Positions 21,638-38,023 of a DNA stretch of 61,322 nt are shown piece by piece. The position numbers were made by a program, and so were the translations under genes. The notes beneath the pieces were generated by a model. It did not search any database, was not told the DNA's origin, and worked only from the letters and a program-made list of their open reading frames with translations. Each line of letters begins with the position of its first letter. Within the stretch, counting starts at the first letter, position 1. Where the stretch lies: NCBI GenBank assembly GCA_046758445.1, contig JBHIAE010000015.1, forward strand, positions 1 through 61,322, written 5' to 3'. This DNA is from Candidatus Thorarchaeota archaeon. GTDB lineage: Archaea; Asgardarchaeota; Thorarchaeia; Thorarchaeales; Thorarchaeaceae.

Positions 21638-22819
21638 ATGGCGGAGGTATTCACAAAACCGTCACGACGCATTCGGAATATGGTGGCGAAAGAACTCCGT
21701 CTGATAGTCAAAGACAAAGTAGCATTGATTCTAATCTTCCTACTGCCCGCGGCTCTGATAGGAATGCTGTGGTGGGTCACTGACATGAGCGAGTTGGGCG
21801 ATCTTGATATGGGAGGCTCGTCAGGCTTTGGAGGCGGCGGCACAACAAACGAAACGGAATCCAGCGGGGGATTGGTCCTTGGTCTCATCGATCTTGACAC
21901 CACGAGGACATATGATGGAGAGGATCTCTCAGAGAACTTCACTGCATTCCTAGAAAACATGGTTGGCGAGCTAGTAATCTACGATAACGAAGAAGATGCG
22001 TTCAATGATCTGTACTTCATGCGAATTGATGGTTTTGTTGTGATACCAGACGGTTTCGAGGCTAATCTGACTATAAACGAACCAACCTATGTCGAGATGC
22101 ATGTTGACGCCACTGATCTCATAGGGCAGCAGACCGTGATGGGTACAGTACAGGCAGGTATTATTGTGTTTAGGGCATCAAAGCTCTGGATCAGGTCAGA
22201 AGTGTTTCCATCAATGATGATTGAATTTGCTCCCAAAGGGGGCTATCTTGTTTCAACGTTTGGTGGATTCATTGTTGTCTTCTCATCGTATCTAGGGATT
22301 GCAATGACATCTGCTCAGTCTATCGTAGGGGACATTCCCCTTAGGAGAATGCTTCTAACGCCCACGAACAGACTTGAAGTCATAGTGGCAAAGGTAATCG
22401 GCTATCTCGTAATCGGATTCTTCCAATCCCTTCTTCTAATCTCTCTGTGGGTGTTGGCCTTTGACTTGAACTTGAACACGGGCTTTGAGTCCCTTATCAT
22501 TATCATGAGCCTGACCACTCTTACAGGCTCTACGACCGGGATATTGATCTCGTCAATTGCGGGAACAAGACTCCAGGCGAATCAGATGTTCCTCTTCGTT
22601 TTGTTCGCATCTATCATACTTGCAGGTTTCTTCATAGATGTAGGGGCCCTTGATGAGATCCTACCCTTGAACCAAGGAATGAACCTGCTCATAGCCACGG
22701 CATTCAAGGGGCTCACCCTAGTTGATGTGTGGAGTTCAGTGCTAAGACTTCTGGCATTCTCTGTCATGGCTATTCTACTTGCCTCATTCATCTTCTCAAA
22801 GAAACCGACACTAGACTAA
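21638..22819 (+). CDS. ABC-2 type transporter permease with extracellular domain
   Basis: KELRLIVKDK start, TM1, extracellular loop with IPDGF, LRRMLLTP...VIVAK and further TMs. Confidence 0.88.
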   Translation: MAEVFTKPSRRIRNMVAKELRLIVKDKVALILIFLLPAALIGMLWWVTDMSELGDLDMGGSSGFGGGGTTNETESSGGLVLGLIDLDTTRTYDGEDLSENFTAFLENMVGELVIYDNEEDAFNDLYFMRIDGFVVIPDGFEANLTINEPTYVEMHVDATDLIGQQTVMGTVQAGIIVFRASKLWIRSEVFPSMMIEFAPKGGYLVSTFGGFIVVFSSYLGIAMTSAQSIVGDIPLRRMLLTPTNRLEVIVAKVIGYLVIGFFQSLLLISLWVLAFDLNLNTGFESLIIIMSLTTLTGSTTGILISSIAGTRLQANQMFLFVLFASIILAGFFIDVGALDEILPLNQGMNLLIATAFKGLTLVDVWSSVLRLLAFSVMAILLASFIFSKKPTLD

Positions 22820-22820
22820 G

Positions 22821-24524
22821 GTGGTTGCAATGGCGGAAAGAACTGGAACTGACCTAACTCGACCTGAAGGAGTTCCCTCCTTTGTGGAAGAGGCCTACTA
22901 CTCAGGAGCGCGATTGGCCGGGGCCATAGACTGGTGTCTGACTCGAAAGGATCGGGAGCTTCACTGTGATGTCCAAGGAGTCCTGACCTCTACTGGACGA
23001 AACGTGAAGTTCAAGGGGCGGATTCTCAAGGTGAAGAAAGGCGTTCTCACAAGACGCATTGCTGTTCTCGTCGAGGAGGACCTGCGCAGAACCCGAAGAG
23101 GGGACCTGGACATGGTTCTGACTGTTGGTGGAAGTGGGGCCACTCAAGAAGACGTCGCGGCGACTGAGATTACTCTTCAGAACTACTTGAAGAGGAATAT
23201 CTCAGAGGACCTCTACTATGATGGACGTGATTTGCAGCAGGCTGTCAAGGAACTAGTGAGAATCAGGAGCGAACAGAGCATATGTACTGTGTGGGGCAAG
23301 AGAGCATCAGACAAGCTGCCCATTATGATTAACGGGATTGTCGTGGGCTTCTCCACAGAGGTTCTTCAACCGCAGAAGGGGACCATTCTTCCGGAGGGTT
23401 TTCTTGAAGTCCGTGTTGAACCAGAAGGCGTCATCGGCGACCCCAAGATCTACCTCGTTGCACAGCCCCAGCTATTGATTGGACCCAGGTCCAACCCAAA
23501 TCTCACAATAATCGCAGACAAAGTGTATATTCAGCCCTTTGCATGGAAAGAGGCCCCTGCATATCGTGATGTCTTGGAGGCGAGAAACCTAACGGTCAAG
23601 CTTAGGTCCGGACAAAGACTCATTGAGAATGTCACATTTGCAGTGCAGGAGGGAGAAATGCTTGCAATCATCGGGGAATCTGGTGCAGGCAAGTCCACTA
23701 CCGTCAAAGCACTCATTGGTGACATCCCCAGCACTGGCGTTGCAAGAATCGCTGGCATTGACTCCAGGCAGACAACTAAGGTACGCCACTTCTTCGGATA
23801 CTGTCCACAGGACCTCTCCTACATGTATGAAACCTTCACTCCTCTAGAGAATATAATCGCGTTCGGAAAGCAATATGACATTCCAGAGTGGCAGCTCATT
23901 CAGAGAGGAAAGTCGCTGCTCAGGGATTTCGGGATTCTGAACAAGGGCAATAACCCCACCAAGGAGCTTAGCGGGGGAGAACAACGAAGAGCATCCATTG
24001 GTGTAGCCATGGCCCACATGCCGAAAGTGCTCTTGATGGACGAGCCCACCAGCGGACTTGATCCGGACAATAGAACAGAGCTATGGCAGTATCTGAACTA
24101 CATAAACCAAGAGTATGGCACCACCATAGTCGTCATCACACACTACCCTATTGAGTCCGAGTTCTGCGACAAGGTCGCTGTTTTCATGCGAGGAAAGAGC
24201 CTCGTATCATATGGAAGTCCACGGAATCTGAAGGAGTCGATGCCTAACAATGGGTTCTCAGTCGGAGTCGTGCTTGAGGAAGTAGATCCCCGGGCCAGGG
24301 CCACTCTAGAGGCTGTAGATGGAGTCAGATTCGTCCTGCAACGGGGTGAGCTCTTGAAGGTGTTTACAGACCAGGCACTTGAGGTCACTGCAGAGAAGTG
24401 TGTTGCTGCACTTGAAGAGAAGGCAATCCCAGTCAAGATTGTAAGGACAAAGGCGGTGGCTGATATGGTCGACTATTACATCGCAATCACCAGAGGTCTG
24501 ATCACAGGCACGGTAGAGAAGTGA
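22821..24524 (+). CDS. ABC ATPase with N-terminal tandem TrmB-C-like domains
   Basis: Walker A GESGAGKST, LSGGE, LLMDEPT and THY. About 250-aa N-extension with two YY.G-initiated repeats and VGGSGATQED. Confidence 0.85.
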   Translation: MVAMAERTGTDLTRPEGVPSFVEEAYYSGARLAGAIDWCLTRKDRELHCDVQGVLTSTGRNVKFKGRILKVKKGVLTRRIAVLVEEDLRRTRRGDLDMVLTVGGSGATQEDVAATEITLQNYLKRNISEDLYYDGRDLQQAVKELVRIRSEQSICTVWGKRASDKLPIMINGIVVGFSTEVLQPQKGTILPEGFLEVRVEPEGVIGDPKIYLVAQPQLLIGPRSNPNLTIIADKVYIQPFAWKEAPAYRDVLEARNLTVKLRSGQRLIENVTFAVQEGEMLAIIGESGAGKSTTVKALIGDIPSTGVARIAGIDSRQTTKVRHFFGYCPQDLSYMYETFTPLENIIAFGKQYDIPEWQLIQRGKSLLRDFGILNKGNNPTKELSGGEQRRASIGVAMAHMPKVLLMDEPTSGLDPDNRTELWQYLNYINQEYGTTIVVITHYPIESEFCDKVAVFMRGKSLVSYGSPRNLKESMPNNGFSVGVVLEEVDPRARATLEAVDGVRFVLQRGELLKVFTDQALEVTAEKCVAALEEKAIPVKIVRTKAVADMVDYYIAITRGLITGTVEK

Positions 24525-36639: not shown

Positions 36640-36751
36640 GCTACCGTTCATCCACTTAATGGAAATGCCTCGGGACCATGGCGCAGACTGACTGTTACTA
36701 AGGTTGATAAACAAGCACCTGAACTGCTGACACAGGACTGCAGGGGTAGTC

Positions 36752-38023
36752 ATGGCCATGGAACCAGAGGACTTGGTTGGGTCAATCGAAGAGAAGCTCA
36801 ACGCAATAGGCGTTGCTGAGCAGATTGATCCAGAACTCATCCGACCAAGAGCGGTCCATTCTAGGGACCGAAAGGCGCTGACAGAACTCGAAACCCTGTT
36901 TCAGAACGCTCTAGAGGCCATAAAAGACGACAAACGAGTACCAAGCATCTTGTGTCGATTGGCAACTCTTCATCTTTCCGAGGGGGACTATGCAAGGGCA
37001 ATCATCCAATACGAGATATGCCTTAGCCTGAACAGCGAACAAGTGAATGCATGGGTGCACATGGGACTCTCCTACCTGATGGCAGGTGAGGCGACGGACG
37101 CTTTGAGCTGTTTCGGCAGTGCCTTGGCGGTTGACCCGAAGAATATCCGAGCCATGATCTATATGGCGAGGGCCCAACTTGAACTGGAGGACTATGAAGA
37201 GGCCCTGAAGAACATTGAATCGGCACTGAAAGTGGACTCAGGCCATCCCAGGGCACTGATGACAAAGGGACTCTATTTCAAGAAGAGGGGAAAGAAGGAG
37301 GGGGCGATTACCTGGGTCATGAAGGCCATAGAGAGCGACGGAAACTTCATACCTGCGTACATGGAGCTGGGGTCGCTCTATCTAGAAACCGACCATTTCG
37401 ATAGTGCCGCTCAAATGCTCGTAACTGCACTCAGGAAAGATCCGGAACAACCCTACGCAATATCCATGATGGGAGATGTGTTCTACAGACAGAAGGACTA
37501 CAATCAAGCGCTCTTCTACTATGACAAGGCTGTGGCAGTCAAGTTTGACGACCCAGATCTCTGGATTCGAAAAGGTGACGTTCACAGGCTAATGAAGTCC
37601 TACAAGCAGGCACACAATGCATATCAGAAGGCCATAAACGCGAACCCTGAGTGCATAGAAGCCTGGGCAAAGAGCGGCGACGTTCTACTTCTAATGGATG
37701 ACGAAAGCATAGCCTTGGAATACTTCAACACGGCCATGGCCCTAGCGCCCGACCACAGTGAGGTTGCCCACCGGCGGGGTCTCGTGTATTTCTCACAGGG
37801 AAGACACGAAGAAGCACTCGCGGACTTTGATGTTGCTTTTTCAGTCGAACCAGGAAATCCCGAACACCTATACTACAGAGCGCTTTCATTGGAGAAGCTA
37901 GACCGACTTCCTGAAGCACGACGAACTTGGCAAATCGCGGCTTCTCTCTATGAACAGGAGGGAAATGAAGTAAAGGCCGCCGAGTGCAATGCCAGGGCAA
38001 AACGAATCGCGAAGGATGAGTGA
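36752..38023 (+). CDS. Tetratricopeptide repeat protein
   Basis: Consecutive 34-aa repeats such as AW...G......G....A...F..AL..DP across most of its length. Confidence 0.9.
   Translation: MAMEPEDLVGSIEEKLNAIGVAEQIDPELIRPRAVHSRDRKALTELETLFQNALEAIKDDKRVPSILCRLATLHLSEGDYARAIIQYEICLSLNSEQVNAWVHMGLSYLMAGEATDALSCFGSALAVDPKNIRAMIYMARAQLELEDYEEALKNIESALKVDSGHPRALMTKGLYFKKRGKKEGAITWVMKAIESDGNFIPAYMELGSLYLETDHFDSAAQMLVTALRKDPEQPYAISMMGDVFYRQKDYNQALFYYDKAVAVKFDDPDLWIRKGDVHRLMKSYKQAHNAYQKAINANPECIEAWAKSGDVLLLMDDESIALEYFNTAMALAPDHSEVAHRRGLVYFSQGRHEEALADFDVAFSVEPGNPEHLYYRALSLEKLDRLPEARRTWQIAASLYEQEGNEVKAAECNARAKRIAKDE

Follow-up and report, generated by a model that had tools for sequence, protein, structure and literature searches.

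Do the genes for an ATP-binding cassette (ABC) transporter and for two very large surface proteins that lie together on contig JBHIAE010000015.1 of a Candidatus Thorarchaeota archaeon (assembly GCA_046758445.1) encode one membrane machine, and if so, of what kind? The genes are found between positions 21638 and 38023 of the window, by which we mean the whole stretch of 61,322 nucleotides analyzed, and they specify an ABC-2 permease, an ABC ATPase (AtpA), a protein with a Peptidase_S8 fold and a GIFT domain (S8-GIFT), a second ABC ATPase (AtpB), a giant surface protein, and a tetratricopeptide repeat (TPR) protein (Table 1). The first four appear to form a conserved core in which a transporter is paired with a catalytically dead subtilase, and the GldAFG system of Bacteroidota is the nearest functional analogue that we can offer.

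Direct reading of coordinates and junctions placed six open reading frames (ORFs) on the forward strand where they were expected, with gaps of 1, 4, 1, and -4 nt (the last an ATGA overlap) between the first five and 112 nt before the TPR gene, which is the layout given in an initial annotation made from the sequence letters. The tightly packed or overlapping start and stop codons across the cluster were counted in favor of one machine. Hydropathy analysis gave S8-GIFT and the giant protein each a signal-like N-terminus and one C-terminal transmembrane (TM) segment followed by basic residues, and thus a type I topology, bearing out the earlier suggestion of two huge single-pass membrane proteins, while no TM segments were detected in AtpA, AtpB, or the TPR protein. 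One permease and two different ATPases, likewise proposed at the outset, were recovered with Pfam and NCBIfam, and the ATPases fall into separate orthologue groups.

All sampled genera of the family have a full-length orthologue of S8-GIFT, and further ones were identified in a relative at the order level and in other families of the same phylum. In loci of 20 kb, the order permease, atpA, S8-GIFT, atpB, giant gene was kept in all nine sampled genera of the family and in the order-level relative, and in Thorarchaeia this five-gene synteny persists at identities down to 50, 57, 35, 62, and 45%, respectively, with values for the whole set, the TPR gene included where present, spanning 27-62%. 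The four core genes also occur together in the families designated f12, f21, f22, f24, and f9, where their order and orientation are shuffled and where the f9 genus carries a core with two permease genes. Co-occurrence was surveyed in 400 Asgard genomes, using profiles of the non-S8 part of S8-GIFT and of the N-terminal domain of AtpA. The former was present in f1 (78 of 85 genomes), f12 (17 of 19), f7 (5 of 5), f21 (6 of 6), f22 (3 of 3), and f24 (2 of 2), as well as in f2, and the latter in f1 (80 of 85), f12 (17 of 19), f7 (5 of 5), f21 (6 of 6), and f22 (3 of 3). S8-GIFT is confined to one genus in f9 (4 of 135 genomes), and the AtpA domain was found in the same four genomes. Neither gave a match in any surveyed genome of f5 (31), f18 (22), f14 (12), or f20 (12). 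The co-conservation in relatives on which the initial annotation had staked its proposal is thus seen both in synteny and in co-occurrence. Because the four genes have been retained together through several rearrangements and show matched presence and absence, we regard these genomic patterns as strong evidence that the core is one functional unit, even with relatives counted as the non-independent samples that they are.

The giant and TPR genes were not found beside the core outside Thorarchaeia (f1 and f2), and at least eight families carry the core without them. Because the core loci of the other families lack the pair, the two genes are, judged by gene content, Thorarchaeia-specific additions to the core. 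Of 11 complete Thorarchaeia loci, nine have a TPR orthologue on the downstream side of the giant gene; it follows immediately in eight of them and comes about 3 kb later in L025. A calcium-stiffened stalk as the purpose of the machine, around which the initial annotation had built its model, was rejected since the other families that keep the core have neither gene.

Some loci differ in composition. In the 'chromosome' of Thorarchaeota bin8 (CP070658.1, G004; loci L028 and L029), the cluster lies in two places separated by about 470 kb. The break falls within the gene for S8-GIFT, of which residues about 311-416 are missing, and the giant gene is interrupted too, the result of either rearrangement or misassembly. 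Within a few kb of S8-GIFT, f7 and f21 encode a soluble protein of ~1045-1094 aa (27-59% identity; Table 1), one copy of which gives a weak match to the MIT domain, and this protein may serve these lineages as a partner of their own, in the way that the giant/TPR pair may serve Thorarchaeia.

S8-GIFT, the transporter subunits, and the giant protein

From the N-terminus, S8-GIFT consists of a signal peptide, a propeptide-like region, the S8 fold, a beta super-sandwich, two beta-sandwiches, the GIFT domain, an Ig-like domain, the TM helix, and a cytoplasmic helical hairpin. In the alignment to Tk-SP from Thermococcus (3afg), the position of the catalytic Ser is taken by Thr404 (codon 25738-25740) and that of the oxyanion Asn by Asp300. 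At the Ser position, 16 orthologues drawn from eight families have T, S, A, V, A, A, A, A, A, L, A, D, F, S, A, and G, and the oxyanion Asn is replaced by Asp in all 24 orthologues aligned. The catalytic Asp and His are mostly kept, being lost in several orthologues and present in the protein of this locus (Asp174 and His206), and the region that aligns with the Tk-SP propeptide is retained. Weak NCBIfam matches were obtained to the pseudoprotease receptors CspC and CspBA. Judging from these replacements across eight families, S8-GIFT is almost certainly a pseudoprotease, as the initial annotation had it. Public records name the protein either 'S8 family serine peptidase' or 'hypothetical', and the former label is almost certainly wrong; the correction extends to roughly 40 protein clusters.

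The part of S8-GIFT that follows the S8 fold was analyzed with an AlphaFold2 (AF2) model of residues 455-1456 (predicted local distance difference test score, pLDDT, of 77) and with a profile of the non-S8 part built from 24 sequences (A2). Searched against the PDB, A2 matched the GIFT domain of IFT52 with E values from 2e-13 (5fms) to 1e-11 and site-1 protease (8uwc) with E 4e-5, and the modeled GIFT domain was superposed on IFT52 (5fmr_C) by VIA-align with Z 22.4 and a root-mean-square deviation (rmsd) of 2.3 Å over 196 aligned residues. Taken alone, the protein of this locus scores 25.2 bits against IFT52_GIFT (cut-off 27.2) and has weak matches to DUF4350 and ABC_transp_aux, and orthologues pass the Pfam cut-offs of ABC_transp_aux, IFT52_GIFT, DUF4350, and MBTPS1_4th. 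A GIFT domain had initially been placed at 27466-28236 (aa 980-1236), with the want of any GIFT or DUF4350 match there named as grounds for giving up the proposal; the structural domain (aa 981-1239) agrees closely with that placement. The super-sandwich resembles the N-domains of glucoamylase/glucodextranase, GH94, and GH116 enzymes, and on its modeled fold it is possibly carbohydrate-binding.

The cytoplasmic tail of S8-GIFT is absent only in a subclade (L113, L115, and L130) whose adjacent AtpA has a winged-helix/PCI-like N-domain and not the TrmB-like one described below, and both system types, tailed with TrmB-like and tail-less with winged-helix, coexist in f22 genomes. This pairing suggests that the tail and the TrmB-like domain of AtpA may work together. 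In f22, the start of the tail-bearing S8-GIFT gene is overlapped by a gene (L112:2534-4942 and L114:15027-17426) whose 800-aa product has a single TM at the N-terminus and matches nothing in Pfam, and the two genes are probably co-transcribed.

The N-domain of AtpA was modeled by AF2 with a pLDDT of 78.5 as two similar beta-rich units, and Foldseek matched it to TrmB (3qph_A, E 1.8e-6; 2f5t_X, E 6.3e-5), each match covering one repeat. The profile-to-PDB alignment with TrmB (E 0.36) covers repeat 2 only and is a weak match on which sugar contacts are not mappable. The winged-helix DNA-binding domain of TrmB (PF01978) was not found in AtpA, where the TrmB-like domain is fused to an ABC nucleotide-binding domain (NBD) instead. 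The N-domain is presumably a regulatory or adaptor module, and the control by a sugar that the initial annotation raised as a possibility is a hypothesis. Stand-alone ORFs of 158-166 aa that match a single TrmB-like repeat of AtpA are present in three f31 genomes (G328-G330, for instance G329:C53:10882-11175), in which S8-GIFT was not found. In both AtpA and AtpB, the Walker A, Q-loop, signature, Walker B, and H-loop motifs are all intact; AtpB is ~35% identical to AtpA and 44-90% identical to AtpB orthologues, and both ATPases match generic drrA/NodI-type models of NCBIfam. The permease, whose orthologues are syntenic, has six predicted TM segments and an extracellular loop of ~155 aa between TM1 and TM2. 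With six TM segments and matches to ABC2_membrane families only, it is not a 4-TM permease of the FtsX type (FtsEX/MacB/LolCDE, the Type VII mechanotransmitters).

The giant protein measures 2196-2274 aa in 12 orthologues, with 8-66 indel columns among the 1680 columns of the stalk. Within the family, conservation is highest in its cytoplasmic domain (59-78% identity) and, the TM aside, lowest in the propeller (32-45%); searched against the PDB, the profile of the cytoplasmic domain gave chance matches only (E >= 1). The isolated propeller passes the Pfam cut-offs of models for BBS2, BBS7, and BBS9 (BBS2_Mid, 38.9 bits; Beta-prop_BBS7, 36 bits; PHTB1_N, 30.8 bits), and also those of Beta-prop_CGLA (42.6 bits), PQQ_2 (32.3 bits), FG-GAP_3 (29.9 bits), and FG-GAP (28.6 bits). 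Many DxDxDG-type Ca-binding TSP3 repeats are shared with CglD, a gliding adhesin-like lipoprotein of Myxococcus, and with bacterial TSP3 proteins. The best NCBIfam match of the giant protein, in 13 repeat stretches, reaches 288.3 bits against the CglD equivalog (NF033765, cut-off 400 bits), and this match and that of the TPR protein to GltE are both below cut-off and driven by repeats. What sets the giant protein apart from CglD is its FG-GAP propeller at the N-terminus, its anchoring by a TM, the conserved domain on the cytoplasmic side, and a fixed length of ~2250 aa. With a stalk of fixed length comprising ~1700 Ca-binding residues, it is a candidate building block of the Asgard cell surface, which is as yet poorly understood.

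Relation to site-1 protease and OST48

Site-1 protease (MBTPS1/S1P/SKI-1) is described as composed of S8, P-like, and GIFT domains, with a GIFT subdomain that no other PCSK is reported to have (PMC11231238). Like S8-GIFT, it is a type I protein with a propeptide, an S8 domain, a beta-sandwich region, GIFT, a TM, and a short basic start to the cytoplasmic part (PDB 8UW8, 8UWC, and 9CSD). The S1P ectodomain was the top Foldseek match of the non-S8 part of S8-GIFT (9csd_A, E 1.8e-10, 449 columns), and VIA-align gave Z 19.4 over 309 residues, spanning residues 20-782 of the model (9csd_A and 8uw8_A matches). The model MBTPS1_4th (cut-off 27 bits) is not listed for the protein of this locus, the orthologue from L115 reaches 35.9 bits, and others score 17-19 bits. 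Unlike S1P, S8-GIFT has lost the catalytic Ser and the oxyanion Asn and so has no active autocatalytic site, it carries ~350 extra residues (the super-sandwich and extra sandwiches) between S8 and GIFT together with an added helical cytoplasmic tail, and it is genetically tied to an ABC transporter. By sequence, its S8 domain is no closer to S1P than to Tk-SP or the subtilisins. A further parallel is provided by OST48 (DDOST/Wbp1), the non-catalytic GIFT subunit of eukaryotic oligosaccharyltransferase (PDB 6S7T, 8B6L, and 6EZN; PMC7226087). The GIFT domain, beta-sandwich, and single C-terminal TM of this likewise non-enzymatic subunit match residues 528-933 of the model (Z ~18, ~322 aligned), with an rmsd of ~14 Å that stems from domain orientation; in contrast to S8-GIFT, OST48 has neither an S8 domain nor an ABC link, and no match of A2 to OST48 was detected at the sequence level in the PDB profile search.

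Relatives with an intact active site were also identified. An exhaustive HMMER search with A2 returned ~40 full-length clusters followed by GIFT-only matches, with a second tier of proteins of ~1250-1340 aa from Odinarchaeia and 'Ranarchaeia' that contain S8, a region of ~170 aa, GIFT, and a C-terminal zinc ribbon. In these proteins, the triad and the oxyanion Asn (GNSGP) are intact (L027:7516-11331; P0199, P0204, P0212, and P0216), and residues 154-772 of their profile are collinear with residues 197-851 of human S1P (E 9e-58). On another contig of the genome under study, an S1P-like subtilase of 1014 aa is encoded (L135:1021-4065, forward strand), with S8 at 216-495, a DUF4350/GIFT-like domain at 645-831, and a C-terminal TM. 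Its motifs DTG, HGT, GNSGP, and SGTSAS are intact, and it is apparently an active protease; no ABC genes adjoin it within the 6 kb read. A maximum-likelihood tree of the S8 domain was built from 34 selected sequences, exclusive of eukaryotic S1P, in which the rows marked 'out' (L048, L056, and L067) are active-type paralogues of Thorarchaeota. In it, the dead proteins linked to ABC genes all fall on a single branch (support 100/100), and the backbone gives no placement of this branch among the active clades. In f12, another large S8 protein (1574-1668 aa), which has a long insertion in its S8 domain, is encoded a few kb from the core (L022:2717-7441 and L119:1913-6919).

Asgard archaea would thus have the body plan of S1P (S8, beta-sandwich, GIFT, and TM) in an active form and in a dead one, the latter coupled to an ABC-2 transporter that has two ATPases and a ligand-sensing domain. 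If the fused architecture were ancestral to S1P, and its GIFT-sandwich-TM half to OST48, the operon would represent a pre-eukaryotic membrane module for sensing or export, a scenario that we consider unlikely. Were it true, eukaryotic accessory proteins of regulated proteolysis and glycosylation would descend from the operon, and in the dead form we would have an ABC-coupled receptor of a new kind at the cell surface. A dead and an active S1P-like protein side by side in the closest archaeal relatives of eukaryotes bear on the origin of S1P, OST48, and other GIFT proteins.

Proposed function and competing explanations

The initial annotation had proposed a GldAFG-like machine. As in GldAFG of Bacteroidota (PMC5682007) and in generic operons with ABC_transp_aux (PF09822), the auxiliary family of the GldG type, an ABC-2 permease, an ATPase, and a membrane-anchored extracytoplasmic GIFT protein are encoded together, so that the likeness stands for the parts list; it does not extend to orthology, the equivalog scores being far below cut-off. 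Unlike GldAFG, the present system has two distinct ATPases, one of them with a TrmB-like domain, and its GIFT domain shares one polypeptide with a dead S8 protease and a super-sandwich, a protein that has a signal peptide, a single C-terminal TM, and a cytoplasmic tail; the host is, moreover, an archaeon and has no outer membrane. The best-supported reading is a dedicated ABC-2 transporter that has a non-catalytic, S1P-like protein as its outer auxiliary subunit and is similar to GldAFG in function and not by orthology.

Starting from the gene set, domains, active-site loss, synteny, and co-occurrence that we observed, we propose that the cluster encodes one membrane machine that uses ATP to export an envelope glycan or lipid or to hand it over, and that a ligand gates through AtpA, a proposal that in our judgment has about an even chance of being correct. 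The core would be a heteromeric ABC-2 transporter (type V exporter-fold) with a permease dimer powered by AtpA and AtpB. S8-GIFT would be its dedicated non-catalytic outer subunit, held by the one TM anchor with the dead subtilase head, super-sandwich, and GIFT domain outside and the helical tail inside. Through ATP hydrolysis, a component of the envelope would be exported or extracted (a glycan or (glyco)lipid, probably), and the outside loop of the permease would pass this component to the S8-GIFT ectodomain, which would serve as acceptor or scaffold, as proposed for GldG with GldA/GldF. The tandem TrmB-like domain of AtpA would gate the ATPase in response to a cytoplasmic ligand, the S8-GIFT tail, or both, and in Thorarchaeia the stalk protein with its propeller tip and the TPR protein would have been recruited as a lineage-specific client or partner. 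The physical association, transport direction, cargo, and gating in this scheme are what we infer from such observations. The machine would be a conserved and Asgard-restricted part of the envelope, and a testable case of an ABC transporter with a pseudoenzyme as outer subunit.

Several observations weigh against this proposal. S8-GIFT is not adjacent to the ABC genes in f7, where it lies apart from an atpA(TrmB-like)-permease-atpB set at another locus of the same genomes, nor are some of the f22 copies, and it is genomics only that points to its association with the permease. The carbohydrate-handling idea comes solely from the fold resemblance of the modeled super-sandwich. The covariation of tail and N-domain amounts to one evolutionary event, the tail-less clade being nested once in the tree, and multiply independent covariation was accordingly rejected. 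As to GldAFG as a model, the cargo is not known for either system, AtpB (133.9 bits) and AtpA (99.9 bits) score far below the GldA equivalog cut-off (TIGR03522, 402.6 bits), the GIFT region (960-1260) reaches 12.1 bits and that of an orthologue 12.2 bits against GldG (TIGR03521, cut-off 389.85 bits), and the models returned for the permease at E <= 1 were RbbA, SagH, and a chance match, with none for GldF.

A device for mechanotransmission or signaling could be built from the same parts. ABC movements might reach the S8-GIFT ectodomain (and the giant stalk) and remodel or release surface structures, or the binding of an outside ligand in the dead cleft might be signaled to AtpA by way of the TM and tail, as in systems of the FtsEX type or in pseudoprotease receptors such as CspC. 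CspC acts as a pseudoprotease germinant receptor in spore germination, and PCSK9 binds the LDL receptor. In both, the S8 fold and prodomain are kept and catalysis is lost or unused, as in S8-GIFT; in contrast to it, they lack a GIFT domain, a TM anchor, and an ABC partner, and occur in an unrelated context. A dead S8 fold that keeps Asp, His, and propeptide suits a binding receptor, with which the weak CspC/CspBA matches agree, and the conserved S8-GIFT tail, the very conserved cytoplasmic domain of the giant protein, and a sensor-like AtpA domain that covaries with the tail also count in favor of such a device. However, the permease is of the 6-TM ABC-2 exporter type and not of the 4-TM FtsX/MacB type, and both ATPases resemble ordinary drrA/NodI-type exporter NBDs. 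We take this explanation for the main rival, possible and rather on the unlikely side. Thr can serve as nucleophile in other hydrolase families, and together with the presence of Asp174 and His206 and of active S8+GIFT relatives in Asgard archaea and in the same genome, this might suggest that S8-GIFT is a working protease, using Thr404 or another nucleophile, that matures or sheds the giant protein while the ABC transporter is merely co-transcribed. We judge this highly improbable, given that most orthologues have A, V, L, D, F, or G in place of the Ser, that the oxyanion Asn is always Asp, that Asp or His is lost in several, and that most of the families with S8-GIFT lack the giant protein.

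The initial annotation had also remarked, as speculation, on an echo of the intraflagellar transport (IFT) and BBSome machinery. Pressed further, the GIFT domain, BBS2/7/9-like propeller, TPR, and Ig-like domains would be remnants or forerunners of that machinery. In favor of this, IFT52 GIFT is both the best PDB profile match (E 2e-13) and the best structural match (Z 22.4), and the isolated propeller passes the BBS2_Mid, Beta-prop_BBS7, and PHTB1_N cut-offs. The domains are, however, generic: the GIFT domain is extracellular here and by Pfam just as near to ABC_transp_aux, DUF4350, and MBTPS1_4th as to IFT52, models of FG-GAP, PQQ_2, and carrageenase propellers are matched above cut-off no less than those of the BBSome, and the TPR is of a general kind. 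The propeller and TPR proteins are, moreover, restricted to Thorarchaeia, and no IFT- or BBSome-specific domain was found. We hold descent from or toward this machinery to be extremely improbable, and S1P, which the initial annotation named only briefly, is the closer eukaryotic parallel. That the cluster is nothing more than an ordinary drug or lipid ABC-2 exporter beside unrelated surface-protein genes would fit the generic drrA/NodI-type ATPase matches and an annotation that offers only 'S8 family serine peptidase' or 'hypothetical'. It seems to us scarcely credible in view of a core that stays together through several rearrangements, of matching phyletic patterns in 400 genomes that include the same 4 of 135 in f9, and of an S8-GIFT tail and an AtpA N-domain that have diverged as a pair.

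Features and neighbors of the locus

Table 1. Positions of the cluster genes, their domains, and neighboring or candidate partner genes; entries with an L number refer to loci of other genomes, all others to the window
Feature	Coordinates	Strand	Basis or remark
ABC-2 permease (393 aa)	21638-22819	+	ABC2_membrane_3 E 4e-21; ABC2_membrane_2 32.2 bits > 27.2
AtpA, ABC ATPase (567 aa)	22821-24524	+	ABC_tran + Regulator_TrmB
AtpA N-terminal domain (aa 1-250), tandem TrmB-C-terminal-like beta-barrel repeats, cytoplasmic	22821-23570	+	Regulator_TrmB aa 41-120, 33.9 bits > 22.2
AtpA nucleotide-binding domain	23571-24524	+	ABC_tran E 1e-24; GESGAGKST, LSGGE, LLMDEP, ITHY
S8-GIFT, pseudoprotease almost certainly (1456 aa)	24529-28899	+	Peptidase_S8, GIFT, type I membrane protein
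Peptidase_S8 fold, degenerate active site (aa 165-446)	25021-25866	+	PF00082 E 5.8e-42; Tk-SP 3afg E 6.6e-45
Beta super-sandwich (aa 474-744)	25948-26760	+	VIA-align Z ~22, rmsd 3.1, 233-240 aligned (1ug9, 1lf6_A)
GIFT domain (aa 981-1239)	27469-28245	+	Family profile + AF2 structure match
S8-GIFT TM helix, then Arg/Lys cluster	28606-28662	+	Hydropathy; AF2 helix, model residues 903-930
S8-GIFT cytoplasmic helical-hairpin tail (aa 1380-1456)	28666-28896	+	Kept across families
AtpB, second ABC ATPase (329 aa)	28901-29890	+	ABC_tran E 3e-28; drrA subfamily 191 bits
Giant surface protein (2250 aa)	29887-36639	+	FG-GAP-type propeller, TSP3-like repeats, TM, cytoplasmic domain
Giant protein, FG-GAP-type propeller	30019-31116	+	N-terminal, after signal peptide
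Giant protein, stalk of ~70 TSP3-like Ca-binding 23-aa repeats	31144-36186	+	Repeat analysis
Giant protein, TM	36208-36264	+	
Giant protein, cytoplasmic beta-rich domain, conserved	36304-36636	+	
TPR protein (423 aa), cytoplasmic	36752-38023	+	TPR families E down to 7e-50
798-aa cytoplasmic protein, family unknown	19039-21435	-	Divergent neighbor kept in Thorarchaeia
Soluble partner candidates in f7/f21	L023:9915-13052, L024:6851-9976, L117:3928-7125, L110:11231-14515, L111:11769-14996		

The 798-aa protein is encoded divergently from the permease gene at a spacing of 202 nt, and homologues with 34-50% identity are encoded directly upstream of the permease gene in nine other Thorarchaeota loci. 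Neither a Pfam match nor a PDB sequence match nor a TM segment was found for it, and from its position it may be a seventh member of the system. In a full-text literature search, we found no paper that links Asgard archaea with homologues of site-1 protease, MBTPS1, or the IFT52 GIFT domain, and none on the operon; new here are the two paired system types, the co-occurrence of the AtpA N-domain and S8-GIFT in 400 genomes, the active-type paralogue in the same genome, and the 798-aa upstream neighbor.

A scan for sigma-70 promoters gave 19 sites with 16.5 expected, and one for terminators gave 14 with 11.4 expected, an uninformative result from what is the wrong model for archaea. In an f12 genome, a Ras-family small GTPase (E 6e-48; L022:9529-10053, reverse strand) is encoded directly downstream of atpB, which is typical Asgard content. 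On the reverse strand of the window, 1.6 kb downstream of the TPR gene, a TnpB/Cas12f-like gene was identified at 39624-41069 (Cas12f1-like_TNB, E 1.7e-12).

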